Shown here one piece after another: positions 7,300 through 63,338 of a stretch of 64,000 nt of DNA. Under the pieces are notes generated by a model. The model made no database searches and was not told the DNA's origin. It saw only the letters and a list, made by a program, of their open reading frames with translations. The DNA comes from Candidatus Doudnabacteria bacterium (GTDB taxonomy: Bacteria > Patescibacteriota > Doudnabacteria > UBA920 > O2-02-FULL-48-8): the NCBI GenBank assembly GCA_037200925.1, contig JBBCGO010000001.1:888235-952234 (forward strand), written 5' to 3'. How positions within the stretch are numbered: the first letter of the stretch is position 1; each line of letters starts with the position of its first letter. The translations under genes were made by a program, and so were the position numbers.

Positions 7300-8081
7300 A
7301 GCCGCCCGGTTGTTACCTTGGGATGAGGGTTGCTCACCTTCGGGTAACACCCTTGAAAAGTCTAAAAGGTAGCAAGATAACATGCCCCTTTGCTGTCTTT
7401 TAGGCTCTTCAGAGTCCCAACGATTAAGTCGCGGCTTGCGCCTGTGATGTTTTCGTTTGCGGCGAGGGTACTGCGACCTGCGGCAGAAGCTTGATTGCCC
7501 GATCTACGATCTCTTCCGTTGATAGAGTCGTATTTTGGCAACAGTCTCGTGCACCGCGGGTTGCGGCCACCCAGTCTTCTACTCTGGCGGTCCGACAGTT
7601 CATATTGCTTCTTGAGCTGAACTGCGGTTCGATCCTTGGGAGCGACGAACATAAAACAAATCGCACAAGTCTCCATGCAAGCTCCTCAGGTAGTTGACGA
7701 ATTTTTGAGGGGAACCAGATGGAGTGTTTTCACGGTGAGCGCGAATGCACGAAGCGCCTCCGAAGTCAACGGCGTTACCAGGAATGTAAATGCTCCGGTT
7801 CAGACGTTTCTGAAGTGGATGTTGTGGGATCTCAGCAGGTCCACGATGGACGGATCCTCAAAATCCACGAGTCTGGCGTTGATCGGGGGTGGCGATGGCG
7901 TCGCCTGACAGATCCAAGGCTTTCAGGGTACGGTATGACTTTGGTCCCGTCTTCCGTAACACCGACCGCTTGGAACTCAGGTTTGCTCAAACCCATTCGC
8001 GCCAACGCATCTTTGAACTGCGGTGTACTTGGCGTCCTTGATGCGCGCTGCAACGGGCGTACTAAACACGAAGTGCGACAT
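7300..8081 (-). pseudogene. Decayed foreign gene remnant: G+C-rich, frameshifted ORF fragments, function unknown.
   Basis: There is no ORF above 130 aa in about 850 bp. The minus-strand ATG at 8081..8079 has a GGAGG SD 9 nt upstream and reads MSHFVFSTPVAARIKDAKYTAVQ before hitting a stop. Protein-like text continues in shifted frames (FKDALARMGLSKPEFQAVGVTEDGTKVIPYP; IYIPGNAVDFGGASCIRAH). G+C is visibly higher than in flanking DNA. Confidence 0.3.
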
Positions 8082-10372: not shown

Positions 10373-10852
10373 TCAAATCTTCAGGTTTCTGGCCAGAGTG
10401 TCCGTGAATGACTCTTCGCGGTCCAGATCTTCAGGGATATATTGATTCAAAAATAATTTTAGTTCCACCGGATCCTGGCTGCCCAATTCCAGGCTGATCT
10501 GGCTGTTCAGGTAAGCCGAAGTCTCAAAATTCAAAGTTTTTACAGTCGGCGGGTTGTAAATGATCCAGAAAGTTTTAACGGTTTTGTAGGGATAAACAAT
10601 GCCGCCCGAAACGATGCCCGTTTTGCTGGCTTTAAAGATCAAGGTTTTGGGTTGCTGTGAGGTGAACAGCAAAACCGAGAAGATGATGACCACGAAAGTT
10701 ACGACCATGAGAATACTGTGGTTATATATGCCGAAAATAATCAATGCGAGAGAGATGAATCCAAAACTTAAATACCAAACGGGCGGCCGTGATTGCCTCG
10801 TTTGGCTTAAAGCTTTCCAGGTTATGGTTTCGGGAAGTTTTTTATTTTCCAT
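10373..10852 (-). CDS. Small membrane protein (two TM helices), function unknown.
   Basis: The ORF-track start at 10900 would overlap tRNA-Ser; its first 16 codons are a tRNA antisense translation (FESRPH). The likely start is the Met at 10852 (MENKKLP...). Confidence 0.4.
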   Translation of the reverse strand: MENKKLPETITWKALSQTRQSRPPVWYLSFGFISLALIIFGIYNHSILMVVTFVVIIFSVLLFTSQQPKTLIFKASKTGIVSGGIVYPYKTVKTFWIIYNPPTVKTLNFETSAYLNSQISLELGSQDPVELKLFLNQYIPEDLDREESFTDTLARNLKI

Positions 10853-16621: not shown

Positions 16622-17041
16622 ATGAATATCGAAGAAAAAGCCAAAAGTTTGCTTAAGATCCGGCCTCACCATTCGGAAGAACTGGCGAAAAAACTTCTGA
16701 TGCGCGGTTTTGACCGTGAGCAGGTCAATGCCGTTATTGCTAAATTAACAGATGAAAAGCTGATTGACAATCAGCAGTTTGCACAAAATTATTTGGACAG
16801 TTTGATAAGATATAAAAGTTTTGGTTTCTACGGTCTCAAGGCCAAACTGATGCAGCGGGGGATTGATGGCAAAGATGCGGAAGCTTTGTTGAAAGAAAAT
16901 TTGCCCATTGAGACAGAAAAAGAAATCGCCCTGAAAGCGGTTGAAAAATCGCAAGAAAAAGATAAAGCGAAACTGGCTCAAAAATTGTCCAGGAAAGGGT
17001 TTCGGAGCGAGGTGATTAGGGAAGTGGTCAAAACAAAATGA
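16622..17041 (+). CDS. recX: RecX regulatory protein.
   Basis: Repeated three-helix RecX motif 'LLMRGFDREQVNAVIAKL...IDNQQFAQNYLDS'. The ORF-track start at 16568 extends into the clpC overlap, so the Met at 16622 is preferred. Confidence 0.65.
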   Translation: MNIEEKAKSLLKIRPHHSEELAKKLLMRGFDREQVNAVIAKLTDEKLIDNQQFAQNYLDSLIRYKSFGFYGLKAKLMQRGIDGKDAEALLKENLPIETEKEIALKAVEKSQEKDKAKLAQKLSRKGFRSEVIREVVKTK

Positions 17042-40856: not shown

Positions 40857-40895
40857 GGTTGGAAAAAGTTCGTAAATTTGCTAAAATGTTCTATT

Positions 40896-40969
40896 GCCCC
40901 CTTAGTTCAGTGGCAGAACAACAGTTTTGTAAACTGTAGGCGGTAGTTCGATTCTACCCGGGGGCTCCA
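40896..40969 (+). tRNA. tRNA-Thr (anticodon UGU).
   Basis: GCCCCCT...CGGGGGCTCCA with anticodon loop TTTGTAA and T-arm GGTAG-TTCGATT-CTACC. Pair 7-66 is a mismatch. Confidence 0.75.
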
Positions 40970-41107
40970 GAAAAATCTGTTGCGAATAACACTTCACAAA
41001 ACATGAGGCGCAGCGTAGCGAGCACATGTTTTGTGAAAAAAGGAGCAGTATGCCGACCGCAGCACAATCGCTTATGCGATTTGCGAAGGTTCGGCCAACT
41101 GCGACGC

Positions 41108-41194
41108 GGGCAGGTAGCGAAGTGGTCAAACGCGGCTGACTGTAAATCAGCTGGCCTTGCGCCTTCATAGGTTCGAATCCTATCCTGCCCACCA
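41108..41194 (+). tRNA. tRNA-Tyr (anticodon GUA), type II.
   Basis: GGGCAGG...CCTGCCCACCA with anticodon loop CTGTAAA, a long variable arm and T-arm TAGGTTCGAATCCTA. Confidence 0.8.
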
Positions 41195-51931: not shown

Positions 51932-52091
51932 GCTTGTTGACATGATCCCGGAATTCATCTATACTGTTTAGGAATTAAATATCTCCAAAGACCGTAGCTG
52001 ACATTTGTCTTAATTCGCTACGCAGGAACAAAAATCACTTAGTGATATTGAACCGTTGTCTTTGGACAGCGGATTTATTTTTATTAATTTA

Positions 52092-52215
52092 CGAAAAAAT
52101 TGAGTCGCAGTCCCTACTTGTCGGGACGAGAACAATTTTTTCGAGAGGAGTAATATGTCGACCATAGCGTATTCCGACTTGTCGGGATCGCGAAGGTTCG
52201 ACAAATTACGACGAT
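52092..52215 (+). promoter_or_regulatory. Conserved structured leader element, copy 1 (upstream of rplJ).
   Basis: cgaaaaaattgagtcgcag-[hairpin gtccc/gggac]-gagaacaattttttcgagaggag... The blocks are shared with 52778-52895 and 63143-63262, and the variable hairpins show compensatory base changes. Confidence 0.6.
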
Positions 52216-52740
52216 ATGGCAGTAACCAGAAAAGAAAAAGAAGCATCACTAGCATCGTTAACGGAAGATTTGAAATCCGCTCGCGGTGTGGTCTTTACCG
52301 AATACCGCGGCATGACCGTAAAGCAGATGGATAACGTGCGCAAGAATTTGCGCAAAGAAAACGTGAAGTATCAGGTGGTGAAGATCACCTTGCTGAAAAA
52401 AGCTTTAGCCGCCTTGGGAATTAATGCTGACGGGTTGAAGTATGCAGGGCCTCTGGCTGTGGCAGTATCGGATGAGGAAGAAACAGCGCCGGCGAGAATT
52501 CTTAAGAGTCTTATCCGCGAAAACCCTCAACTGGTTTTGGACGGCGGAATTTTCAATCATGAATTGGTTGGCTCGGATGTTGTGGCTAAGCTGGCTTCAT
52601 TACCAAGCAAACAGCAGCTGCTGGGGCAATTAGTTTCTGTTCTGTCAGGCCCGGCCCGAGGATTGGTCACTGTACTTTCCGGCAACACCAGAAATCTGTT
52701 GAACGTATTGAATGCAATTAAGGATAAGAAGAATAATTAA
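52216..52740 (+). CDS. rplJ: 50S ribosomal protein L10.
   Basis: 'VTRKEKEASLASLTEDLKSARGVVFTEYRGMTVKQMDNVRKNLR'. Confidence 0.85.
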   Translation: MAVTRKEKEASLASLTEDLKSARGVVFTEYRGMTVKQMDNVRKNLRKENVKYQVVKITLLKKALAALGINADGLKYAGPLAVAVSDEEETAPARILKSLIRENPQLVLDGGIFNHELVGSDVVAKLASLPSKQQLLGQLVSVLSGPARGLVTVLSGNTRNLLNVLNAIKDKKNN

Positions 52741-52777
52741 AGGTCGATTTACTTGTTATAGAGTCTATAATTAATTA

Positions 52778-52895
52778 CGAAAAAATTGAGTCGCAGGCTC
52801 GAAGAGCCGAGAACAATTTTTTCGAGAGGAGTAATAAGTCGACCGGAGCGCATTTTACGAAGTAAAATCGCGAAGGTTCGACCAATTACGACGAC
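52778..52895 (+). promoter_or_regulatory. Conserved structured leader element, copy 2 (upstream of rplL).
   Basis: Same primary blocks as copy 1. Hairpin 1 is replaced by ggctc-gaag-gagcc and hairpin 2 by attttac-gaa-gtaaaat. It is preceded by a TATAAT box (52766-52771). Confidence 0.6.
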
Positions 52896-53273
52896 ATGGC
52901 AAATTTTGATAACATAGTTTCTGAGATCGAAAAGCTTACCGTGCTGGAAGTTTCCGAATTGGTGAAAACCTTGGAAGAAAAATTCGGTGTTTCGGCTGCC
53001 GCTCCCATGATGATGGCAGCAGCAGGTCCTTCAGCCGGTGGAGGCGCACCCGTTGAAGAAAAAACTGAATTTACGGTTGAACTGACGGAAGCCGGCGCTA
53101 ATAAGATCAACGTCATCAAGGTAGTGCGCGAGGTAACCGGCAAGGGTCTGAAAGAAGCGAAAGATCTGGTTGACGCAGCTCCAAAGCCGATCAAAGAGAA
53201 CATAGGAAAAGCTGAAGCCGAGGAACTGAAGAAGAAATTGGAAGAAGCCGGCGCGAAGGTAATATTGAAATAG
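52896..53273 (+). CDS. rplL: 50S ribosomal protein L7/L12.
   Basis: '[31 protein letters not shown]' and '[28 protein letters not shown]'. Confidence 0.85.
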
Positions 53274-53293
53274 GTAATAAGTAATAAGTTTTA

Positions 53294-53325
53294 GACCCGA
53301 GTCAACACTCGGGTTTTTGTTTTTC
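53294..53325 (+). terminator. Rho-independent terminator after rplL.
   Basis: acccgagt-caac-actcgggt stem followed by TTTTTGTTTTT. Confidence 0.6.
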
Positions 53326-53535
53326 TATACCCTAAAACCTATTAACCTCAAACTTATCAAATTGCTCTTTACAAGTTCTCTTTTTTGTGCTATAATGTTT
53401 ACAGATACAGTATTGGTTAGCCGATACTTTGCGGCAAATCATTACAAATCCCCAAGAAACAAAAATAAAATTGAATAAAGAGAGAAGATCAGGGAACAAT
53501 TTTTTTCCTGAGCTTTCTTCTTACTTTGATACAAA

Positions 53536-53766
53536 ATGGAAATCCAAACCGACGAGCTTTTAAGCTTAAAAGAAGCTTCCGAACTGTCGCCTTACAGCGC
53601 TGATTATTTGAATCTTCTGGCGCGAAAAGGGAAGTTAAAGGCGCGTAAAATAGGCCGCGACTGGCTGATCACCAAAGCCGATCTTTTTGATTATCTGCAT
53701 AAACAGCATCTGGACTCAAAGAGCCGTCTCAAGCAGCTTTCAAAATATTTAAACCTGCTTATGTAA
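53536..53766 (+). CDS. Excisionase-family helix-turn-helix DNA-binding protein.
   Basis: 'LSLKEASELSPYSADYLNLLARKGKLKARKIGRDWLITKADLFDYL' HTH. Confidence 0.55.
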   Translation: MEIQTDELLSLKEASELSPYSADYLNLLARKGKLKARKIGRDWLITKADLFDYLHKQHLDSKSRLKQLSKYLNLLM

Positions 53767-53855
53767 GTTGTGTCCTTCGAGGATAAATTCCTTACAGCTT
53801 TGCGCCACTTCAATGGCACCAAACAATCGTAAATTAATTAGAATTAATTAAATCT

Positions 53856-54296
53856 ATGGCAAAAAAATCGAAACCAAAAACTAAAACAACAAGAGTAAAA
53901 AAATATCCGACCCATCATTTGGTCACGATATTGACCTGCGTGCTGGTTCTAGAAGGAATTTTGTTTGCGGTCAGCACTCCGGCTGACTGGCTGAATGCCG
54001 CCAATATTTTGGATGTTTCGGGCGGTGTTTCGGAAACCATGCAGGAAACGATCGTAACTTTTCAGCCGATGATCGACGTGGTGCGGGGCATCAATCAGTT
54101 TTATCAGCTTTCAGCCACCCAGATGATGCGGCTTTTGGATCTGTCCGACAGCGGCGCTGGTCAGGAGATCGGATATATCTATAACGGTGTGGCTGATTTT
54201 TATCAGCAGACCAGTTCTCAGATGGCTCAGCTTCTTGATGTTTCGGATAATCGGTTGTGGACGCCAAAGGTTTCCGGGATTTCAATACAGCGATAA
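53856..54296 (+). CDS. Membrane-anchored hypothetical protein with internal repeats.
   Basis: N-terminal TM and repeated 'FYQ(L/Q)S(A/S)TQM..LLD(L/V)SD' segments. Paralogous to the next gene. Confidence 0.4.
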   Translation: MAKKSKPKTKTTRVKKYPTHHLVTILTCVLVLEGILFAVSTPADWLNAANILDVSGGVSETMQETIVTFQPMIDVVRGINQFYQLSATQMMRLLDLSDSGAGQEIGYIYNGVADFYQQTSSQMAQLLDVSDNRLWTPKVSGISIQR

Positions 54297-54316
54297 TTAC
54301 ACAAAGATCAAAATAA

Positions 54317-54916
54317 ATGCAGAGAGCCGCCGCAATCTTTTATGGTTTGAGTATTTTCGTCCTGATGACGGCTTTTTTCGTCTTGCAGCCGTCGAAGGCG
54401 CCGGAAGTCGCGGCTTTTCAGCAAAGCGTGAAACTGCAAGTCAGTGTGGCCTGGCAGCAAACGATCGGTGACGGACCTTATTTTGACACCCTGGCCAATA
54501 TATATGACGGCGTCACAGGATTTTATATGCAAGCTTCAAATCAGGCGATAGCTTTGCTGTCACAGCCTGATTCTGACGCAGCGGTATATTATGTTTTCCA
54601 TACAACGTACCAGGATTTTGCGCAAATTTTTAAATCAAGACAAGTTCATTTGGCGCAAACTTTAAATTCACCGGGACCCGATAAATTTATGACCGAAGCT
54701 GCGATTGATAATATAATTCCGGATAGCATTGTCCAGGCCAGTGAATCTTCGGGCGTAATTGCGGGTGCTGCCGTCAACGCCGTTGATGCGCCTGTGAACC
54801 AAGAAAATTCATGGGTGACGATCCAGGATAATTTTACGGGCCAAAAATATTGCCTGGCGATCTATAACGGGGAAGTGAATAAATATCTGGGAGAATGTAA
54901 ATCGATTTATCGCTAG
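54317..54916 (+). CDS. Secreted hypothetical protein, paralogue of the preceding gene.
   Basis: Signal/TM 'IFYGLSIFVLMTAFFVL' and 'GFYMQASNQAIALLSQPD' related to the upstream repeats. Confidence 0.4.
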   Translation: MQRAAAIFYGLSIFVLMTAFFVLQPSKAPEVAAFQQSVKLQVSVAWQQTIGDGPYFDTLANIYDGVTGFYMQASNQAIALLSQPDSDAAVYYVFHTTYQDFAQIFKSRQVHLAQTLNSPGPDKFMTEAAIDNIIPDSIVQASESSGVIAGAAVNAVDAPVNQENSWVTIQDNFTGQKYCLAIYNGEVNKYLGECKSIYR

Positions 54917-54955
54917 AATAAAAAAAACGCTCCACCGGAGCGTTTTTTGTTTTGA

Positions 54956-56839
54956 CTATAATGTGATCTTATAAAGCTTATTGTCGCCCAAAATATACAG
55001 GCTGCGTGAACTTTCATCCACGGCCAGGTCAAAAAGTTTATCCAGAGTCGGCAAATATATCTGGTTTAAGAGTTGTCCGTTCTTATTGAGGATGACAACC
55101 CGCTTTTTGTTTGCTTCCAGAATATAAAGGTTGGATCCGACAAAGATCTTCGTGGCATTGGTGATCGGGTCACTCAGAGCCGGATAGGGGAAAGACTGGG
55201 CCTTATTATTGGTTATCTTCTCAATTTTGTCCGTAAACAGCAGATAAATGTCTTTGTCGGCCCCCAAGTCGCGGATATTTTCCTGGCTTCCCGTACTGAT
55301 ACCGACGCTTGAATACTTATTTTTGGTAAAATTGGTTTTGATAACCTGGCCGGCGGCCGGGTTGAGGGTATATAAATTGCTGCCGAAAGTTGCAAGGCCA
55401 ATGAACGCGCTACTTGGCGTGGTGACAATCGGTTCAAACTGCTTCAGGGTCGGGTCAATATGATAAATGCTGTCGCCCGATGTCACCACTACGCCGGCCG
55501 GATTGAAGTAATTGATGCCGGTAATGTCGGACTTCAGGCTGTTAAGCAAAAAATAATCATTCAGGCTGGAATCATAAAGGGACAATGAATTGGAATCTTT
55601 ATTTGCAAACAAAAAGCCGATACTTGCGCGGGAGACATAGACGGGCGAGTGCTTCAATTCCACAAAAACCTTAGGATCAGCGATCGTACTGACTTTATTG
55701 ACCTGATCTTTAAGCTTCTGAAGTTCCCCTGAAAGTCCGTCGGCTTTGGAAGCGCTGAGCTTCTGCAGGGCGGTGAAATCAGATTCAGCCTGGGCCAGGG
55801 ATTGGAAAGCCTCTTTATCGTTTTTATATATAAGAGCTGACTGCGCATCAGACATATCATTGGCAAGGTTTTGAGCCAGTACATCGATGTTGCTTTGGGA
55901 TTTTTTGCCGTGCGCCTTTATGGCATAAACGCCAAGATTTCCCAGGAACAGCAGCAGGAAGATAGAGAAGCTGATGAAGAAGAATTTTCCCGATGTGCTG
56001 AGGTTTTGAAAAAATCCCAGCTGTAAGCGCGGCATCTTGGGAAGGCTGAATCGCGGCTTTTGTAATTTGGGCAAGGCCGGCATTGCCCAAGAGCTTTTAT
56101 TTTGTTCCTCGTTTTCCTCCTGCATCGGGGCGTAAATAGAGTTTGCCCTTTCTTGGGCAGGCTTAGCTTCCACGGCTGTTTTTTTGCCGAAGCTTAAGAA
56201 GAAAGAAGAAAATCCCTCTTCCGAGCTTTGCGAATCTTGCAGGATCTTTGAAATCTCGTTCGCGGCTTCTCCCAGCGGTTTGTTGGCAAGGATCTTTGAG
56301 AATAGTTCGACCGAAATGAAATTAAATATATTTGAAGTGGTGATGATGACGCCGTCGCCTTCCTTTAATCTTCCTTGGGTGAAGTTCGTGAATGTTTTCA
56401 GGGGATGGATCCCGTGCTTTTCGGATTTAAGTATTTCCAAAAGCTCCGATTTGCGCAAAAGCCAGGCGGATGTCTGGCCGTCATTCGCAATGTAAATATT
56501 CTCGCCGGATTTGAGGGCGATCAGGCAGGAAAATTTGCCAACCCAGGATTTGTGCCCCGAATGGGCCAGATCCGCCAGGTTCTGGTTGACCTGGGCCAAT
56601 GCTGATTCAAACAGCGTTTCTGCTGCCAGTTTTTTATTGGCGTGGAAGGATTCCAGGATAATTTCAGAGATTTTTTTGAGGTCTTGTGCTTCTGATTTGC
56701 GCAGCAGATTTTTCAATTCGGCCAAAACAAACAAATGAGCCGAGTTGCTTATCTCTTCTTCATATAAAATCAAAGAAGATTTTTTACTCTCCGGATCTGT
56801 CAGATAAATTTGATTGATTTCTGTTTCCAGCCGCGCCAT
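54956..56839 (-). CDS. Large bitopic hypothetical protein: cytoplasmic N-domain (possibly PPM-phosphatase-like), one TM, extracytoplasmic beta-rich C-domain.
   Basis: 627 aa with TM 'FFFISFSIFLLLFLGNLGVYAI'. The N-domain call is tentative ('NIYIANDGQTSAWLL', 'GDGVIITTSNIFNFI'). Confidence 0.45.
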   Translation of the reverse strand: MARLETEINQIYLTDPESKKSSLILYEEEISNSAHLFVLAELKNLLRKSEAQDLKKISEIILESFHANKKLAAETLFESALAQVNQNLADLAHSGHKSWVGKFSCLIALKSGENIYIANDGQTSAWLLRKSELLEILKSEKHGIHPLKTFTNFTQGRLKEGDGVIITTSNIFNFISVELFSKILANKPLGEAANEISKILQDSQSSEEGFSSFFLSFGKKTAVEAKPAQERANSIYAPMQEENEEQNKSSWAMPALPKLQKPRFSLPKMPRLQLGFFQNLSTSGKFFFISFSIFLLLFLGNLGVYAIKAHGKKSQSNIDVLAQNLANDMSDAQSALIYKNDKEAFQSLAQAESDFTALQKLSASKADGLSGELQKLKDQVNKVSTIADPKVFVELKHSPVYVSRASIGFLFANKDSNSLSLYDSSLNDYFLLNSLKSDITGINYFNPAGVVVTSGDSIYHIDPTLKQFEPIVTTPSSAFIGLATFGSNLYTLNPAAGQVIKTNFTKNKYSSVGISTGSQENIRDLGADKDIYLLFTDKIEKITNNKAQSFPYPALSDPITNATKIFVGSNLYILEANKKRVVILNKNGQLLNQIYLPTLDKLFDLAVDESSRSLYILGDNKLYKITL

Positions 56840-56898
56840 ATTCGGGTTTTATAATAGCATATTTTAATCATTGAGGCTATTTATGCTATAATATTTGC

Positions 56899-57489
56899 AT
56901 GTTGGCACAGCTTTTATCATCTAAACCTAAAGCGAATCTGATCAATCTGTTTTTGGCGCACCCCCAGCGCAGTTTTTCTTTCAAAGAATTGAAGATGAGC
57001 AGTTTATGCCCGAATAAATTGCTCAAAGAAACTTTGAAAGAGCTGGACAAAATGGACTTTTTGTCCGTGACGCAAAAAAACCGCGTAAAGTATTATCAGA
57101 TGAACCGGCATTTTCCGCTTTATCCGGAGCTTTTAAATCTTTTGCGGAAAGTAAAAAAAGTGCCTGTGGATCTTCTGGCCAAACAAGCCGCAAGGTTGGG
57201 CGATTGCAGGCTGGCAGCCTTGACCGGGGTATTTGTGGGCAGGCCAAGAATTGAGACCGATCTTTTGTTTGTGGGAAAGATCAGCCCGAAAAAACTGCAG
57301 GGCTTTTTGAAATTCGCGGAAAAGCTGGCCGAGCAGCAGGTCAGCTATACCGTATTCAGCGTCCAGGAGTTTGAATACCGCAAACTCATGAACGACAGGT
57401 TTGTCAAGAATATCCTGGAAAATGACCCGGTATTGGCTGTCGATAAAATGAAGCACCGGACTTTATCTAAGATCGTTTATAAATTTTGA
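56899..57489 (+). CDS. Hypothetical protein (possible wHTH regulator-like).
   Basis: 196-aa ORF with no catalytic motifs. Confidence 0.35.
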   Translation: MLAQLLSSKPKANLINLFLAHPQRSFSFKELKMSSLCPNKLLKETLKELDKMDFLSVTQKNRVKYYQMNRHFPLYPELLNLLRKVKKVPVDLLAKQAARLGDCRLAALTGVFVGRPRIETDLLFVGKISPKKLQGFLKFAEKLAEQQVSYTVFSVQEFEYRKLMNDRFVKNILENDPVLAVDKMKHRTLSKIVYKF

Positions 57490-57519
57490 TCTATTAATAA
57501 CTCATAACGATAAAAAAAT

Positions 57520-57756
57520 ATGGAACAAATTTCCTCCATTTATAATCAATTCTTAAGTTTTTTTCCTGCCAATCTCCATGGCCTCGTTTCTTTGGTCCTG
57601 GCTATCCTGATCGTGATAGGCATTTTCAAAGTCATCCGCAAGGATTTCATATATATTATTTTGTTGATCGTCCTGCTGCCGGCCTCGGTGCCGATCCTAA
57701 AGAACATCTGGGAAAGCCTGGTAAATATCTTAAATTTCCTGTTGTCAAAGAAATAG
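57520..57756 (+). CDS. Small membrane protein.
   Basis: 78 aa with two hydrophobic helices. Confidence 0.4.
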   Translation: MEQISSIYNQFLSFFPANLHGLVSLVLAILIVIGIFKVIRKDFIYIILLIVLLPASVPILKNIWESLVNILNFLLSKK

Positions 57757-57762
57757 GATGTT

Positions 57763-57791
57763 TTGACGTTTCAGAAACTATCCAGTATAAT
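57763..57791 (+). promoter_or_regulatory. Consensus sigma-70 promoter (TTGACG-17-TATAAT).
   Basis: TTGACG at 57763-57768 and TATAAT at 57786-57791 with an exact 17-nt spacer. Downstream are the leader hairpin gatccgc-agact-cgcggatc and a 38-codon acidic ORF (57845-57961). Confidence 0.5.
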
Positions 57792-58225
57792 ATTTGCAAT
57801 ATTAAGATCCGCAGACTCGCGGATCAGAAAGTCACATATTCAATATGGATGACGACGGCAAGATGCCACCAGATGACATGCCATCAGATGATACCGCTGA
57901 TAAGAAAAAGGATGATGGCGCGGAAGATACTGGTACAGGCGACGAAAGTGATGTTATATAGCAAGGTATCGGAAGTTTGATCAGCTGCTGACAAAGGTTA
58001 AAGTAAATTTGTGATCAAACTTCGACATTTTATCAAACTGCTAAAATTATCCAGTAGGGGAGTTCGATTATTCCGGGAAACTCGGATCAACTTCCACTAC
58101 TGGATTAGAGGCAGTTTTTTAGTGGATAACCTGATTGTGGAGTAAAATTTAACTAGTTGACCAAGTTTAGCAATTCTGTTGCAATTTAGCCTTATTTGAG
58201 GGCTTTTTTTGTTTGATTAAACTCT

Positions 58226-58297
58226 TTGACGAGTGGTTTAAGGTGGATTATAATGATTAGGAAGTGGTAAGTTGTGGATAAAAGTGGGGAAAAGTGG
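58226..58297 (+). promoter_or_regulatory. mraZ promoter (TTGACG-17-TATAAT) overlapped by an array of six GTGG repeats at 10-bp periodicity (candidate MraZ operator).
   Basis: -35 at 58226-58231 and -10 at 58249-58254. GTGG at 58233, 58243, 58264, 58274, 58284 and 58294. The one slot without GTGG coincides with the -10 box. Confidence 0.6.
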
Positions 58298-58334
58298 AAA
58301 ACTATCTTTGAACCTCAAGGAAACAGGAAAATCA

Positions 58335-58766
58335 ATGTTTATCGGGGAATATACAATCAGCATGGATGCCAAGGGGCGAATCGCAGTTCCTTCAAAATTC
58401 CGCAGCCTTTTGAACACCGCAGCCGTGGTCACTAGGGGATTGGATCAAAGCTTGTTCTTATATCCGCGGAAAGAATGGGAAGTAATTGCGGCCAAGCTGG
58501 CTGCCCTGCCTTTGTCCAAAGCCAATTCCCGGGCATTTTCACGTTTGATGCTGGCCGGGGCATGGGATATTGAGCTCGATAAGCAGGGGCGCATCATGAT
58601 CCCCGAATATTTGCGCAAATTTGCCGGGTTGAGCAAAAAAATTGTTGTGGCGGGTTTATACGACCGGATCGAGCTCTGGGATGAGCAGACTTGGTTGGAA
58701 TATAAGAGAAACACGGAACGGGAAAGTACGAAGATCGCCGAAGAATTGGGGGAGTTGGGAGTTTAA
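58335..58766 (+). CDS. mraZ: Transcriptional regulator MraZ.
   Basis: 'MFIGEYTISMDAKGRIAVPSKFR' and a second 'DKQGRIMIPEYLR' SpoVT/AbrB-like repeat. The ORF-track start at 58272 runs through the operator repeats, so the Met at 58335 is preferred. Confidence 0.8.
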   Translation: MFIGEYTISMDAKGRIAVPSKFRSLLNTAAVVTRGLDQSLFLYPRKEWEVIAAKLAALPLSKANSRAFSRLMLAGAWDIELDKQGRIMIPEYLRKFAGLSKKIVVAGLYDRIELWDEQTWLEYKRNTERESTKIAEELGELGV

Positions 58767-59726
58767 ATGCATGTCCCGGTACTTCTTAAGGAAGTTCTAG
58801 AATATTTAAATGTTCAGAAGGGGAAAAAGTTTGTTGACGGCACAGCCGGGGGAGGGGGGCATATTTTTGCCATCAAACATGCCAATCCGAAAGCAAAAAT
58901 TTTAGGTATTGATTTGGATCAAACCTCTTTGGATAACTTGCAGACTGAAGTTGACCAAAAAGGCTTGGGCCAAACCATCGAGCTGGTCCAGGGAAATTAC
59001 AGGGATATTGATAAGATCCTCAGCGCGGCAAAGTTCGGTTCGGTCGACGGGATATTGGTCGATTTGGGTTTCTCGTCAATGCAGCTGGACCATCCAGACC
59101 GGGGTTTTTCCTTCCAACAGGATAGCCCTTTGGATATGCGATATGACACCAGTTCCAAGTTAACCGCGGCAGATGTGGTTAACCGGTACCACCAAAAAGA
59201 GCTGGAAAAGGTAATTGCCGAGTTTGGAGAGGATCGGTTTTACCGGCGAATTGCCCAGGGTTTGATCGCATCACGCAAGGCCAAGCCGATCGAAACCACA
59301 AGCCAACTGGCCGAGTCCGTAAGAAAGGCTGTTCCGCCTCAGGTCAGATTTAAGGCCAATGACAATATCAGGCGGGTGTTCCAGGCGATCCGGATCGAGG
59401 TCAACCGGGAACTTGAGAATTTGAAGATATTTTTGCCGAAAGCATTAGACTTGCTGACTCCTGCCGGGCGATTGGTAATAATTTCTTTTCATTCACTTGA
59501 AGACCGGATCGTCAAAGAATTTTTTCGGGAACAGGCAAAAGATTGTATTTGCCCGCCGGAGTTCCCGATGTGCGTGTGCGGTAAGGCTTCGAAACTTAGA
59601 ATTTTGACGCGCAAACCGGTAACGGCAACCGAACAGGAACTTGAGGAAAACCCCAAGAGCAAACCGGCGAAGCTTAGGGCCTGCGAAAAAATAGAAAGTG
59701 CGAAAAAAATTAAAACTAAATATTAA
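58767..59726 (+). CDS. rsmH: 16S rRNA (cytosine1402-N4)-methyltransferase RsmH/MraW.
   Basis: 'HVPVLLKEVLEYL', 'DGTAGGGGH', 'GILVDLGFSSMQLD'. Confidence 0.85.
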   Translation: MHVPVLLKEVLEYLNVQKGKKFVDGTAGGGGHIFAIKHANPKAKILGIDLDQTSLDNLQTEVDQKGLGQTIELVQGNYRDIDKILSAAKFGSVDGILVDLGFSSMQLDHPDRGFSFQQDSPLDMRYDTSSKLTAADVVNRYHQKELEKVIAEFGEDRFYRRIAQGLIASRKAKPIETTSQLAESVRKAVPPQVRFKANDNIRRVFQAIRIEVNRELENLKIFLPKALDLLTPAGRLVIISFHSLEDRIVKEFFREQAKDCICPPEFPMCVCGKASKLRILTRKPVTATEQELEENPKSKPAKLRACEKIESAKKIKTKY

Positions 59727-59737
59727 AGGCGGCAAAA

Positions 59738-60073
59738 ATGCGTGATTTAACACTAGCGATTCCCGTGGGATTTACTAAAAAAAGAACTGGGAATTCCGTT
59801 TCCAATAAAATTTTGAATCTGTCTATTTTGGTTGCTACATTGTGTTTCGGATTTATCTACCTGTTTGAGATCAATGCCATGGGGACAAAAGGCTATCAGA
59901 TCCGAAGCCTGGAGCAGCAGGTCAGGCAGGTGCAGGAGGTGCAGAAGAATTTGCAGCTTCAGACCTCCGATCTGCAATCAATCAACAGGATCCAATTGCT
60001 GGCCCAAACTTTAAATTTTGTCCCGACCACCAATGTCACTTATCTTAAAGATTCCGATTTTGCTCTCAAATAA
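59738..60073 (+). CDS. ftsL: FtsL/DivIC-like cell-division protein.
   Basis: Single TM followed by a coiled coil (LEQQVRQVQEVQKNLQLQTSDLQ). Its position between rsmH and the PBP fits the dcw-cluster order. Confidence 0.45.
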   Translation: MRDLTLAIPVGFTKKRTGNSVSNKILNLSILVATLCFGFIYLFEINAMGTKGYQIRSLEQQVRQVQEVQKNLQLQTSDLQSINRIQLLAQTLNFVPTTNVTYLKDSDFALK

Positions 60074-60084
60074 CCGAGCTTTTC

Positions 60085-61830
60085 ATGAATAAGGCTGTGA
60101 AAGCAAATCCACCGCCGTCAAAAAATTCTTATAATCTAAGAATTTTTTTGTTAATGCTGCTGCTGACTTCTTTTATCGGCGTGATCGGCATCAGGCTGTT
60201 TAATCTGCAAATTTTAGACCATAGTTATTACAAGGCTTTGGCATCAAATCAGCATGGACTTGAAACCACTATCGATCCGCAGCGGGGGCAAATTTATCTG
60301 CAGCCAGTAAACCCCGATTCACAGCCGCTGCTGGTGGCGACGAATCTGAGCAAAAATATGGTTTTTGCCATTCCGAAGCAAATTCCCGATAAAGCCGCGG
60401 CTGCAGCAAAACTTGCCCGCTTGCTTGATATGTCCGTAAGCGATTTGCAGGCAAGAATAAGCGGTCCCAGTTATGTGGCGTTAAAAAAGCAATTGACCGA
60501 TGATGTTTCGGCCAAGATCAAGGCCCTCAAAATTCCCGGCATTTATTTGGAAGCCCAGAATATCCGGTTTTATCCGGAAGATAATCTGGCCAGCCAGGTT
60601 TTGGGATTTTTGGGCTTCAAAGGAGACCAGCGGGTCGGCCAATACGGAATTGAGGGAAAGTTTGAAAAAAATTTGGCCGGTGACAAGGGTTCGCTGGGCA
60701 CGGATACTGACCAGACCGGCAGCTGGATCTCTCTATCGGGGCGCAATCTGGTGCCGGCTACCGACGGAGACGACATTTATCTGACGATCGATCCGACCAT
60801 CCAGTATAAGGCTCAGCAGGTTTTAGCCGACACTGTGAAGGCGCATCAAGCCGATGGCGGCAGTGTGGTCATCTTAAATCCCAAAACCGGCGCGGTACTG
60901 GCAATGACTTCGTTCCCTGATTTTGATCCTAATAACTACGGCAACGTGACAGACCCTTCGGCCTTCAGCAATCAAGTACTGACAGAGCCGTATGAACCGG
61001 GATCGGTGTTCAAGGGAATCACCATGGCTGCGGCGATCGACACGGGCAAAGTAACCCCTGATACGACATTTGAAAACACCGGTTCCGTCCAGGTGGACGA
61101 TAAATTGATCAAAAATTCCGATCCTACGCTTTTTTTGGGCACGCAGAATATGATCACGGTTTTGGACGAATCGCTGAACACGGGCGCGTATTTCGCGGAG
61201 CAGCAGATCGGCAACGATGTTTTTAAAAATTATGTTGAAAAAATGGGTTTCGGCAAACCGACGGGTTTTGAGCTGCCGGAAGTGGCCGGCAATCTGAAAA
61301 ATCTTGAGCAAAAAGGCAATGTGTTCTTTGCCACGGCATCATTCGGCCAGGGTATTACAGTTACCCCTCTGGAACTGGCCCAGGCTTATTCCGCACTTGC
61401 CAATGGCGGCAAAATGGCCAAACCATACATTGTGGCAAAGATCGTGCATCCCGACGGGTCCCAGGATGTGACCAAACCCGCTGATCCGGTTGAGGTCATC
61501 AGCCCCAAGACCGCCTCTACGGTTTCAGCCATGCTCGTGGATGTGGTGGAGAACGGCCATGGGAAAAAAGCCGCAGTCAAAGGCTATTACATCGCAGGCA
61601 AGACAGGAACCGCGCAAGTCCCGCTGGTCGGCAAGTCAGGATATGATCCCAATAAAAATATCGGGTCCTTCATCGGATTTGGCCCGGTGGACAACCCGCA
61701 ATTCGTAATGCTGGTGCGCATTGATAATCCGAAAGACGTAAAATTCGCCGAAACCACAGCTGCGCCGGCATTTGGCGAGATAGCCAGTTTTATCCTAAAC
61801 TACCTGCAGATTCCTCCCTCTAGACAATGA
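60085..61830 (+). CDS. ftsI: Penicillin-binding protein (FtsI/PBP2-type transpeptidase).
   Basis: N-terminal TM, SxxK 'SVFK', SxN-like 'KNSD' and KTG 'KTGTAQ' motifs. Confidence 0.8.
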   Translation: MNKAVKANPPPSKNSYNLRIFLLMLLLTSFIGVIGIRLFNLQILDHSYYKALASNQHGLETTIDPQRGQIYLQPVNPDSQPLLVATNLSKNMVFAIPKQIPDKAAAAAKLARLLDMSVSDLQARISGPSYVALKKQLTDDVSAKIKALKIPGIYLEAQNIRFYPEDNLASQVLGFLGFKGDQRVGQYGIEGKFEKNLAGDKGSLGTDTDQTGSWISLSGRNLVPATDGDDIYLTIDPTIQYKAQQVLADTVKAHQADGGSVVILNPKTGAVLAMTSFPDFDPNNYGNVTDPSAFSNQVLTEPYEPGSVFKGITMAAAIDTGKVTPDTTFENTGSVQVDDKLIKNSDPTLFLGTQNMITVLDESLNTGAYFAEQQIGNDVFKNYVEKMGFGKPTGFELPEVAGNLKNLEQKGNVFFATASFGQGITVTPLELAQAYSALANGGKMAKPYIVAKIVHPDGSQDVTKPADPVEVISPKTASTVSAMLVDVVENGHGKKAAVKGYYIAGKTGTAQVPLVGKSGYDPNKNIGSFIGFGPVDNPQFVMLVRIDNPKDVKFAETTAAPAFGEIASFILNYLQIPPSRQ

Positions 61831-63095
61831 AGAAGCTAATTCAGAAAATTCTATACGGTTTGGCAAAACTAACCCTGGCCCGCTATCGGCCCAGGGTTAT
61901 TGCTGTCACCGGAAGCGTGGGGAAAACTTCCACGACAGGAGCTATCGTTAAAGTTTTGGAGACCAAGTTTTCGGTCAGGGGCAGTGCGGGCAATTATAAT
62001 AATGAATTCGGAGTGCCTCTGACTATTATCAATGAAAAATCCGGGGGGAGAAATCTGCTGCTTTGGATATTGATTATCATTAAAGCCGTGCTTAAGTTAA
62101 TCTACGCCGATTACCCGCAAGTGCTGGTCTTGGAATTGGGCGCTGACCGCCCGGGCGATATCGGATACTTAGCCGGTATGCTGGGCAGGATCGAGATCGG
62201 GGTTTTAACTGACATCGGCATAAGCCATCTGGAGTTTTTTTCCAGTCAAAGCGAACTGGCTAAGGAGAAATGGACTTTGATAAAAAAACTGGATCGCAGC
62301 GCCCTGGCTATCCTTAATTTTGACAACCCGAAGATCTTTGAATACAGAACCCAGGCTAAAGCGGATGTTTGGGGTTATGGATTCAATCCTTCTGCCCAGA
62401 TAATGATCTCTGATTTTCAGATCATCCGGGTGAATGACAAGTGGGGAGTGAATTTCAAGATCCATCATAACGGCAATGTCGTGCCTTACTTTTTGCCGGA
62501 CGCTTTGGGCAAACCGCCGGTGTATGCGGCGGCGGCCGCAGTAGGATGTGCTGTCAGATTTGGCATTGATCTGGCCACAGCTTCCGAAATATTAAAATCA
62601 TTTTCACCGCCTCCCGGGCGGCTGCGGATGCTGTCCGGCATCAAGAATACGCTGATCATTGATGATACTTATAATGCGGCTCCTGATTCGACCTTTGCAG
62701 CGCTGGAAGCCTTGAGCCAAATTTCATCCGGGCGCAAGGTTATAGCGTTTGGCGGCATGACAGAGTTGGGAAACAAGACGGAATCAGGACACAGGGAAGT
62801 GGCGGGGAAAATTATGGAAAATAATATCGACCTTGTTTTTCTGGTTGGCGAAAATGCCAGGATAGTTGAGCATGAATTGCGTAAACGCAAGTTTGGCGGC
62901 CAAGTAAAGTGGTTTGAAACCGCAGACCAGGCACGCATCCCGATCCAAGATGAATTACGGGAACAAGATACGATCTTGGTGAAGGGCTCGCAGGCCGGCC
63001 GTATGGAAAAGATCGTAAAAGAGATAATGGATGAGCCTCTTCGGGCAGAAGAATTGCTAGTCCGGCAATCCCAAAAATGGCTGGCCACGCCATAA
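61827..63095 (+). CDS. murF: UDP-MurNAc-tripeptide--D-Ala-D-Ala ligase MurF (Mur ligase family).
   Basis: P-loop 'VIAVTGSVGKTSTTGAI' and 'IIDDTYNAAPDS'. Its start overlaps the ftsI stop. A hydrophobic segment (LLLWILIIIKAVLKLIYA) is unusual for MurF. Confidence 0.7.
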   Translation: MKKLIQKILYGLAKLTLARYRPRVIAVTGSVGKTSTTGAIVKVLETKFSVRGSAGNYNNEFGVPLTIINEKSGGRNLLLWILIIIKAVLKLIYADYPQVLVLELGADRPGDIGYLAGMLGRIEIGVLTDIGISHLEFFSSQSELAKEKWTLIKKLDRSALAILNFDNPKIFEYRTQAKADVWGYGFNPSAQIMISDFQIIRVNDKWGVNFKIHHNGNVVPYFLPDALGKPPVYAAAAAVGCAVRFGIDLATASEILKSFSPPPGRLRMLSGIKNTLIIDDTYNAAPDSTFAALEALSQISSGRKVIAFGGMTELGNKTESGHREVAGKIMENNIDLVFLVGENARIVEHELRKRKFGGQVKWFETADQARIPIQDELREQDTILVKGSQAGRMEKIVKEIMDEPLRAEELLVRQSQKWLATP

Positions 63096-63142
63096 TTATG
63101 GGTTTTAGTTTTAGCCAAAAGTGAGTATAATAGTGTAGTTCC

Positions 63143-63262
63143 CGAAAAATTTGAGTCGCAACCGCCGAAGGCGGTGAGAACAAATTTTTCGAGAGGAGCA
63201 GCAAGTAAACCGTAGCGCTTTTGACGAAGTCAAAACGCGAAGTGTTTACCGGACTGCGACGA
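63143..63262 (+). promoter_or_regulatory. Conserved structured leader element, copy 3 (immediately upstream of tRNA-Glu).
   Basis: cgaaaaatttgagtcgca-[accgcc-gaag-ggcggt]-gagaacaaatttttcgagaggag...[ttttgac-gaa-gtcaaaa]. TATAAT at 63125-63130. It ends 1 nt before the tRNA. Confidence 0.55.
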
Positions 63263-63263
63263 A

Positions 63264-63338
63264 GGCCCTATCGTCTAGTGGTTAGGACAGGTGGTTCTCA
63301 TCCACCAAACCCGGGTTCGACTCCCGGTAGGGTCACCA
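63264..63338 (+). tRNA. tRNA-Glu (anticodon CUC).
   Basis: GGCCCTA...TAGGGTCACCA with anticodon loop TTCTCAT and T-arm CCGGG-TTCGACT-CCCGG. Confidence 0.75.

Follow-up and report, generated by a model that had tools for sequence, protein, structure and literature searches.

A structured RNA element of about 120 nucleotides (nt) occurs in four copies in the 64,000-nt stretch of Candidatus Doudnabacteria genomic DNA considered here (assembly GCA_037200925.1, contig JBBCGO010000001.1, positions 888,235 to 952,234 of the forward strand; hereafter the window), each copy lying directly in front of a ribosomal-protein or tRNA gene. Among the copies collected from this and other loci, all 23 with the 3′ end present are co-oriented with the next gene and end at its functional 5′ end (within −1 to +3 nt), whether the gene is an open reading frame (ORF; 13 copies) or a tRNA gene (10 copies). 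The element is rated here as new, both as a family and in its behaviour, and as a member of no described family. Our preferred reading, a tentative one based on modelled structures, is that it may be a portable leader cassette with a hairpin-bridged, self-masked ribosome-binding site (RBS), in which an invariant Shine-Dalgarno (SD)-like motif at one foot of a conserved hairpin can pair with the 3′ tail adjoining the start codon. Several other explanations are weighed below, and they are not mutually exclusive. If the family is as it appears, protein genes and tRNA genes of the translation machinery alike have their 5′ ends taken over, in these minimal-genome bacteria, by one portable RNA cassette.

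Copies in the window and collection of the family

A covariance-model scan of the window with filters off yielded exactly four copies (98–131 bits), and the next-best match, at 17.6 bits, was a reverse-strand echo. The copies, with their covariance-model scores, are as follows.

Copy 1: 52092-52215, + strand, between the L10-leader terminator and the rplJ ATG (52216); 121–131 bits
Copy 2: 52778-52895, + strand, between a TATAAT box (52766-52771) and the rplL ATG (52896); 131–135 bits
Copy 3: 63143-63262/3, + strand, starting 11 nt past a TATAAT box (63126-63131) and adjoining the start of tRNA-Glu(CUC) at 63264; 115–118 bits
Copy 4: 40995-41107, + strand, between tRNA-Thr (40896-40969) and tRNA-Tyr (41108-41194); 86.7 bits (R1) and 97.7 bits (R2)

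The initial annotation of this stretch, made from the sequence alone, had described three copies. Their coordinates and shared sequence blocks are present in the sequence as it gave them, as are the 3′ boundaries, with copy 1 running to the rplJ ATG, copy 2 to the rplL ATG and copy 3 ending 1 nt before tRNA-Glu. It had overlooked the fourth copy at 40995-41107 (98 bits), flush with tRNA-Tyr, which was recovered, together with copies at other loci, by building and scanning with the covariance model that it had proposed as a check. Copy 4 is a variant, with loop A AGGCGCA/GAGCA, the linker AAAAAAGGAG and the tail CGACGC, and its last base directly precedes the first base of tRNA-Tyr (41108). The predicted folding energy of the element is −43 to −50 kcal/mol; against dinucleotide shuffles, copies 1–3 reach z = −6.0 to −6.4, and 0 of 200 shuffles were equally stable.

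Pattern scans of public collections returned 3 genome loci and 99 metagenome loci, most of the metagenome matches being due to chance, and covariance models sorted these loci into 17 further distinct copies. The total collected is 23 copies, which score 65–135 bits against noise below 18 bits and measure about 113–147 nt. Because the scans required GAGTCGC...GAGAAC...GAGAGGAG, the conservation seen in these blocks is in part circular; the covariance model alone recovered copy 4 and the copies at loci L097, L108 and L109, which display the variation that is really permitted. The L10 protein of the window is 100% identical to the one encoded on a 964-kb contig of a Candidatus Doudnabacteria metagenome-assembled genome. 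In the same Doudnabacteria genome, a fifth copy outside the window is flush with tRNA-Pro and a sixth with rpsL, which makes six copies in the 103 kb sampled. No copy was matched in viral contigs. Spread across phyla was considered for two loci, L001 and L003, which are titled 'uncultured Candidatus Saccharibacteria'; the ribosomal protein L2 encoded on the L001 contig is 77% identical to a Doudnabacteria-like L2. On this sequence comparison the family is treated as being of Doudnabacteria type within the Candidate Phyla Radiation (CPR), and the Saccharibacteria labels, which appear doubtful, are not relied on. At two loci (L028, 1430-1488; L097, 1-76), metagenome contigs end within the element, as expected for a multi-copy repeat that breaks assemblies.

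Secondary structure and covariation

The RNA is predicted to fold in two domains, and this modelled fold can be regarded as secure, because of a control in which pairing partners were displaced and because of the number of pair types, even though the alignment was fitted to the model. Across 40 model pairs in 21 full-length copies, 97.3% of cells are paired and 29 pairs carry changes on both sides, the fitting of the alignment having somewhat inflated such pairing figures. Among 500 shuffles, none reached the observed values on four of five measures and one did so on the count of further pair types, while sliding the partners by 1–3 columns reduced pairing to 29–45%; results on 18 copies were similar. 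The compensatory changes that the initial annotation had pointed out in two variable hairpins therefore hold statistically, in the 21-copy alignment as in the earlier 18-copy one.

Domain 1 consists of the 11-bp helix P1, whose 5′ strand is always A-rich and whose 3′ strand is always U-rich, a conserved internal loop (loop A, AGUCGCA opposite GAGAA) and a variable hairpin (P2), and is followed by an A-GA linker. P1 is formed by the 11-nt outer blocks that had been reported as exact reverse complements, which they are. Together, P1 and P2 are 100% paired, with double changes in 9 of 17 pairs. Domain 2 is a single long hairpin (P3–P5) containing a 3×3 purine loop, NNA opposite GAA across copies, and ending in a variable P5 tip; its three helices are 93–98% paired, with double changes in 20 of 23 pairs. 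In copy 2, the predicted fold comprises the following parts.

Domain 1: 52778-52824, + strand, with P1 formed by CGAAAAAAUUG (52778-52788) and CAAUUUUUUCG (52814-52824)
Loop A: + strand, AGUCGCA (52789-52795) opposite GAGAA (52809-52813)
P2: 52796-52808, + strand, variable hairpin
SD-like GAGGAG: 52826-52831, + strand, at the 5′ foot of domain 2
Domain 2 hairpin: 52831-52889, + strand, with P3 GUAAU/AUUAC, P4 GUCGACC/GGUUCGAC, the 3×3 purine loop GGA opposite GAA between P4 and P5, and P5 consisting of GCG and a variable stem of 7 bp closed by a GAA loop
3′ tail: 52889-52895, + strand, CGACGA+C, pairing with GAGGAG and adjoining the ATG

The equivalent motifs of the other copies, GAGGAG or AAGGAG at the 5′ foot of domain 2 and the 3′ tail, lie at the following positions.

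Copy 1: + strand, GAGGAG 52145-52150, tail 52209-52215
Copy 3: + strand, GAGGAG 63193-63198, tail 63257-63263
Copy 4: + strand, AAGGAG 41040-41045, tail 41102-41107

GGAG is invariant in all 21 aligned copies, and the tail is CGACGA followed by 0–3 nt. GAGGAG and CGACGA can pair through a G-C pair, tandem G·A pairs, a further G-C pair and further tandem G·A pairs, and the energy model assigns the inner G-C pair (first G of GGAG with the second C of CGACGA) a predicted probability of 0.6–0.94 in 16 of 22 copies. Furthermore, in copy 4 and L097 a G-to-A change at the first base of the linker is matched by an A-to-C change at the last base of the tail; the domain 2 helix therefore reaches the final nucleotide of the element. 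Of the structure proposed in the initial annotation, the outer helix and the hairpins stand; what it had missed is this pairing of the SD-like GGAG with the 3′ tail.

About 45 nucleotides are invariant, including those of unpaired loops, and the hairpin tips vary freely; copies within one genome share an identical core and have unrelated P2 and P5 stems. The transcribed strand is assigned from the co-orientation of all 23 copies with the downstream gene and not from G·U versus A·C counts, which are 10 versus 9. The tRNA-Pro copy (L108 13924-14037, contig JBBCBH010000057.1) is divergent: its domain 1 is a plain hairpin, CAAUUUCAAAUG/CAUUUGAAAUUG, with no loop A, and its GAGGAG, domain 2 and tail are intact. 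Since this copy has lost loop A and kept the remainder, the sequence suggests that what counts beside the gene is domain 2 with its foot.

Other interpretations of these sequence features were tried and set aside. A pseudoknot between the tail CGA and the loop A UCG was suggested by copy 4, in which the loop changes from U to G and the tail from A to C, and was ruled out by L097, which has the tail C with the loop unchanged; in copy 4 the loop change is compensated locally (U-A to G-C) and the tail change accompanies the linker change from G to A. The tandem G·A pairs have the polarity of a kink-turn (K-turn), which was ruled out by the lack of a 3-nt bulge. A T-loop mimic was dismissed on the ground that UUCGA (within GGUUCGA in P4) is a covarying helix strand, and a DNA-level promoter for leaderless transcripts on the ground that the would-be −10 region is the covarying 3′ strand of P3. 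An upstream ORF was rejected because an AUG follows GGAG in only some copies.

A candidate hairpin-bridged, self-masked ribosome-binding site

At the ORF copies, the element would stand in for the gene's own ribosome-binding region. AGGAG at the 5′ foot of the domain 2 hairpin and the 4–7-nt tail at its 3′ foot would be joined by the hairpin into a bridged ('split') SD, in which pairing of the SD with its spacer would mask both, and this weak lid would have to open before the 30S subunit could load. At the tRNA copies, the tail would correspond to the RNase P leader, masked, or simply constituted, by the same helix. We infer an SD function for GGAG and a lid that restricts how readily the ribosome or RNase P gains access.

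The distances fit such an arrangement. Once P3–P5 are closed, AGGAG lies 4–7 nt from the AUG in 13 of 13 ORF copies, and native SDs in these genomes lie at 4–8 nt. The AGGAG of the element matches the local SD consensus and sits where orthologues have their SD; no SD was found between the element and the ATG at any ORF copy. Hairpin-bridged SDs are documented for T4 genes 38 and 25, in which the intervening structure brings a distant SD and the AUG to a functional distance (PMC3014915). The element shares with these cases an SD-like sequence parted from the AUG by a stable structure and a resulting spacing in the functional range. It differs in its larger conserved hairpin, of at least about 58 nt, whose loops resemble those that bind a protein or ligand, in its second conserved domain, in the pairing of the SD with its own spacer, and in its occurrence before many unrelated genes and tRNAs.

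Several observations weigh against the masked-RBS reading. The element stands before ORFs in 13 copies, but 10 of 23 precede tRNAs, which need no SD, and yet GGAG, the tail and the spacing are equally conserved there. A masked RNase P leader is our own extension of the idea, and we know of no precedent for it. The bridging hairpin, which measures 58 nt in copy 2 and about that or more in general, is far larger than the T4 examples of roughly 20 nt. An SD is, moreover, not obviously needed in this genome: most window genes have none within 22 nt of the start, and a minority carry an AAGGAG-type SD at 4–8 nt. The tight spacing may be accounted for partly by genome compaction, tRNA-tRNA gaps in these genomes being only 1–4 nt. 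Finally, the roughly 45 invariant nucleotides exceed what a simple RBS scaffold needs, which suggests catalysis or a specific ligand or protein.

If the masked-RBS reading is true, the element would be a giant hairpin-bridged, self-masked RBS that can be swapped for the native one. Other explanations discussed below would make it a cis element gating or creating tRNA and mRNA 5′ ends, with a bearing on translation initiation in the SD-poor CPR and on RNase P-independent end formation. The element is also a compact, self-contained expression module of about 120 nt that lends itself to direct trials in synthetic biology.

Occupied and element-free sites in relatives

Support for replacement of the native ribosome-binding region comes from loci that carry the element in one genome and are free of it in another. 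No element was found at rplJ and rplL in five related Doudnabacteria contigs, whose L10 proteins are 69–87% identical. In L106, the rplJ ATG follows directly after the U tract of the L10 leader with no spacer, and the element-free rplL genes are preceded by AAGGA-8 nt-ATG in L106 and by AGAAAGGA-8 nt-ATG in L103. Conversely, rpmG in the window has AGAAAGGA-4 nt-ATG at the place where L002 has the element, and rplW, rpsH and rpmF, which follow an element in other genomes, have none in the window genome. Because relatives have ordinary short leaders at the same loci, the sequence comparison indicates that the element replaces the native ribosome-binding region and that its gain and loss are rapid in evolutionary terms.

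The rpmF locus retains a trace. The rpmF leader of the window genome (L108 9960-10003) ends in ...CGAAAAAAT/ATG (in wider context ...AATTCAACGAAAAAAT/ATG), where the 9 nt with which the element begins still abut the ATG, and the closely related L044 (600-745) has the full element at rpmF. This remnant may be either a deletion scar or a P1 5′ strand that belongs to the target. The element-free alleles at rplJ, rplL, tRNA-Tyr and rplW have neither the P1 5′ strand nor further flanking sequence.

Such turnover also brings to mind a selfish mobile or duplicative element acting at the RNA level, possibly excised like a small intron and persisting only where it is harmless, an account that we consider improbable. 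Its own SD would serve before ORFs, RNase P would remove it before tRNAs, and P1 would be a guide helix for pairing to the A-rich 5′ flank. The sporadic, multi-copy distribution (six copies in 103 kb, none at rplJ or rplL of the five relatives) is in keeping with this account, as are the identical core with unrelated P2 and P5 stems among copies of one genome, the breaking of metagenome contigs within the element (L028, L097), the CGAAAAAAT/ATG remnant against the full element in L044, and a P1 5′ strand that in every copy is rich in A, as ordinary leaders are. However, terminal inverted repeats are absent, no target-site duplication recurs consistently, the P1 5′ strand is missing from the empty alleles at rplJ, rplL, tRNA-Tyr and rplW, and a simple deletion would account for the rpmF remnant just as well. 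At 105–120 nt, the element is also far too small for a group I or II intron and has no such match in Rfam, and strong purifying selection on about 45 positions implies a function, although that function could be mobility itself. Should the account prove correct, the element would be a tiny mobile RNA that targets gene starts.

A related proposal is a new class of self-processing RNA, acting as a small ribozyme or as a mobile leader akin to an intron, whose cleavage or excision at its own 3′ boundary would yield mRNAs with little or no leader and finished tRNA 5′ ends. It would employ P1 as a guide helix on the A-rich 5′ flank, and CGAAAAAAT/ATG would be a scar or an exon junction. We regard this proposal as quite unlikely.

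Position and downstream genes

The ORF copies precede rplJ, rplL, rpsL, rpmG, rpmF, rpsT, rpsH, rplW (twice), nusA, nusB, mutM and a T2SS-F/pilC-type gene, of which 11 of 13 are ribosomal-protein or Nus genes (L10, L7/L12, S12, L33, L32, S20, S8, L23 twice, NusA and NusB). The tRNA copies precede Tyr, Glu (twice), Pro, Ala (twice), His (including G-1), Phe, Val and Leu. The occurrence of the same module before 13 ORFs and 10 tRNAs, in 23 independent copies, supports the earlier suggestion of a generic, transcribed, cis-acting 5′ module. The offsets, counted in nt from CGACGA to the first base of the downstream RNA, are distributed as follows.

ORF copies: −1, two copies; 0, three; +1, seven; +2, one; +3, none
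tRNA copies: −1, none; 0, six; +1, three; +2, none; +3, one

At two independent genes, rpmG in L002 and rpsH in L085, the A of the AUG is itself the last tail base (CGACG-AUG). The starts are the true ones, as indicated by Fpg, which begins with MPELPEVE, its catalytic N-terminus, from residue 1, and by the Pfam profiles of L32 and S20, which match from residue 2; the N-termini of the rplJ, rplL and rpmG products agree with those of orthologues. In addition, the element lies inside polycistronic units, in the arrangements tRNA-Thr/element/tRNA-Tyr, L10 leader/element/rplJ and tRNA-Cys/element/tRNA-Leu.

This placement is an argument for a processing ('punctuation') module, which would be cut at its own 3′ boundary, by a new ribozyme class or by a dedicated or double-strand-specific RNase working on the domain 2 foot, to yield leaderless or near-leaderless mRNAs and mature or near-mature tRNA 5′ ends. 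We consider this explanation, the chief competitor of the masked-RBS reading, possible, if doubtful. Its attraction lies in the flush junction with tRNA 5′ ends and start codons alike in 23 of 23 copies, in the copies within polycistronic units, and in the many invariant unpaired nucleotides, as in small ribozymes. Leaderless transcripts also appear to exist in the window: 4 of 69 genes (32938, 35895, 50415, 56899) have a −10-like box 6–7 nt before the ATG, against a background of 1.3%, and are possibly leaderless, and the −10 box of tRNA-Thr (40896) ends 8 nt upstream. A structured RNA at a tRNA end has a precedent in the theta ribozymes found at phage tRNA 3′ ends (PMC10879173).

The variable offset is a difficulty for a processing module. 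A fixed cut after the last tail base would destroy the AUG in the CGACG-AUG cases, and a cut further upstream would leave leaders of 1–4 nt on other mRNAs. No Rfam ribozyme matches the element at E ≤ 10, the pseudoknot between tail and loop A is contradicted by L097, the tRNA-Pro copy has no loop A, and tRNAs are handled by RNase P anyway. A wider form of the argument, in which leaderless mRNAs would be the norm here, is weakened by the finding that only 4 of 69 genes have a −10 box 5–9 nt before the ATG.

The skew of the gene set, with ribosomal-protein or Nus genes in 11 of 13 ORF copies and tRNAs in 10 of 23 copies overall, would instead suit a regulatory sensor, riboswitch-like or protein-binding, whose loops would bind a small ligand or a protein that locks or opens the terminal helix. 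Translation genes would thereby come under coordinated post-transcriptional control, comparable to growth-rate or stringent control but RNA-based. The internal loops do not vary and the hairpin tips are free to do so, and the terminal helix holds both the SD-like motif and the last bases before +1. Nevertheless, a sensor is fairly unlikely. Regulons are normally more stable than the turnover of the element: close relatives (L10 69–87% identical) have none at rplJ and rplL, and the window genome has none at rpmF, rplW and rpsH. Furthermore, mutM and the pilC-type gene carry the element too, no ligand or partner protein can be named, and regulated access of RNase P has no known precedent.

Promoters, terminators and the L10 leader

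The sequences upstream of the element are varied, with a TATAAT-like box 3–38 nt away, a tRNA 15–30 nt away, or a terminator. A TATAAT-like box had been described before every copy in the initial annotation; it is present before copies 2 (6 nt) and 3 (11 nt), and copy 1 follows a terminator. In the promoter scan, the boxes before copies 2 and 3 were not scored as full sigma-70 sites because their −35 hexamers are poor. The terminator before copy 1 belongs to a separate feature.

L10 leader (Rfam RF00557): 51967-52088, + strand, 54.6 bits against a cut-off of 44, just upstream of copy 1 and separate from the element

The promoter scan placed the promoter of this leader at 51937-51965 (TTGACA-17-TATACT), and its intrinsic terminator lies at 52053-52072 plus a U tract; copy 1 fills the gap from this U tract to the rplJ ATG. 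The earlier judgement that the element is not an L10 leader is thus upheld, a true RF00557 match being adjacent at 51967-52088 and none within the element. An autoregulatory leader of the L10 type, binding a ribosomal protein, could be entertained for copy 1 from its place upstream of rplJ. It is practically refuted as an identity of the element, in which RF00557 finds no match at E ≤ 10, and the element also precedes rplL, rpsL, nusA, mutM and ten tRNAs. The window scan likewise found no intrinsic terminator or terminator-like site inside the element, which argues against the attenuator, one of the candidate roles named in the initial annotation beside a processing or stability element and a decoy, and an intrinsic terminator or attenuator within the element was accordingly dropped.

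The position of some copies close to a putative promoter is relevant to a further explanation, in which the element would be a compact, nuclease-resistant 5′ stabiliser or insulator of highly expressed transcripts, acting against 5′-end-dependent decay (by RNase J or Y) or against upstream sequence. In many copies a −10-like hexamer lies 3–14 nt upstream, which would place P1 near the transcript 5′ end, and the predicted fold is very stable, at −43 to −50 kcal/mol. The SD-like motif is far from the normal RBS position, as in STAB-SD of the cryIIIA stabiliser, and the element would be comparable to the STAB-SD elements and 5′ stem-loops of Firmicutes. We nonetheless give a stabiliser little chance, as several copies are transcript-internal (after a tRNA, the L10 leader or a terminator), neither the roughly 45 invariant bases nor an end lying right against +1 would be needed, and guarding a pre-tRNA leader that RNase P discards makes little sense.

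Two observations concern the transcription units around the window copies. Downstream of rplL come a strong terminator (53293-53316) and a new promoter (53368-53396) instead of rpoB (window 53274-53400), and the rplJ-rplL pair is detached from rpoBC in the window genome and in relatives. Upstream of copy 4, a TG-extended −10 box, TAAAAT, ends 8 nt before the first base of tRNA-Thr(UGU) (window 40859-40896), and the predicted transcript leader is therefore only 1–2 nt; the gap between tRNA-Thr and tRNA-Tyr is 1 nt in L087 and 25 nt plus the element in the window.

Comparison with known RNA families

None of the 4227 Rfam families matched the element, whether in the window (E ≤ 10) or in seven further loci (E ≤ 1), and full-text literature searches found no description of it; the initial annotation had recognised no described family, and the Rfam check agrees. 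The only sub-threshold match was to the Listeria RNA rli53 (RF01481), at 25.9 bits against a cut-off of 70; an A/U-rich helix with a GC hairpin in rli53 resembles P1 and P2 of the element, the rest of the model is unmatched, and the match is treated as due to chance. Known ribozymes, riboswitches and small RNAs were set aside on the same searches, which at these thresholds matched none of the hammerhead, hairpin, hepatitis delta virus (HDV)-like, twister, twister-sister, pistol, hatchet and glmS classes. Loop A does resemble what we take to be loop A of the hairpin ribozyme (AGUC/AGAA), with no counterpart of loop B.

Among regulatory RNAs, SD-sequestering riboswitches and RNA thermometers have an SD-containing helix ending beside the start codon and a conserved unpaired core. 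The element has conserved loops and an SD-containing helix as well, but no known riboswitch class in Rfam matches it; it also stands before tRNAs and turns over among close relatives. With the L10 leader it has in common only that both are cis-acting structured RNAs upstream of rplJ; its fold is different, it leaves the RF00557 model unmatched, and it is not confined to rplJ.

Other systems resemble the element in position. In mitochondrial 'tRNA punctuation', which yields leaderless mRNAs, a structured RNA likewise abuts the AUG or the next tRNA with no 5′ untranslated region between; the element, however, is not tRNA-like (ARAGORN and the Rfam tRNA model match the flanking tRNAs only), and its cleavage is hypothetical. 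The HDV-like theta ribozymes, flush with phage tRNA 3′ ends, are small conserved structured RNAs at a mature tRNA end, in many copies and varied contexts (PMC10879173), whereas the element lies on the 5′ side, has a variable offset to +1 and lacks similarity to any ribozyme model.

Mobile DNA families fit no better. Miniature inverted-repeat transposable elements (MITEs), repetitive extragenic palindromes (REPs) and Correia elements are not indicated: CGAAAAAA... at one end and ...CGACGA at the other do not form inverted repeats, no duplication is consistently present, and 23 of 23 copies are co-oriented and flush with the next gene. Group I and II introns exceed 200 nt, compared with 113–147 nt for the element, which has no Rfam intron match and a variable last base.

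By analogy, the element would work most like a split or masked RBS and be positioned like a processing signal. To our knowledge, no described leader, riboswitch, ribozyme or repeat class behaves in this way, and there is no described counterpart that combines the two-domain fold, the position flush with tRNAs and ORFs, the predominance of translation genes, the replacement of the RBS and the fast gain and loss.

Other features of the loci

Some of the collected loci have further repeats or insertions near the element. In L032 (2776-3171, − strand), the element is followed by the 5′ half of a tRNA-Ala, a GC hairpin, a small GIY-YIG-type ORF (YILRDKSGRLYKGVTNNLVRRLREH...) and an intact tRNA-Ala, an arrangement resembling an insertion of homing-endonuclease type by which the 5′ half of the tRNA was duplicated. 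In L098 (1-134), a tandem repeat of the 7-mer ATGGAAT fills all of the stretch upstream of the rplW element. Other long spacers of ribosomal-protein operons contain unrelated hairpins or direct repeats that are not the element: in L104, the repeat ACCACTATTCAC occurs twice (10555-10600), and in L109, long spacers lie at 7557-7672, between rpsJ and rplC, and at 16825-16968, between rpsH and rplF.

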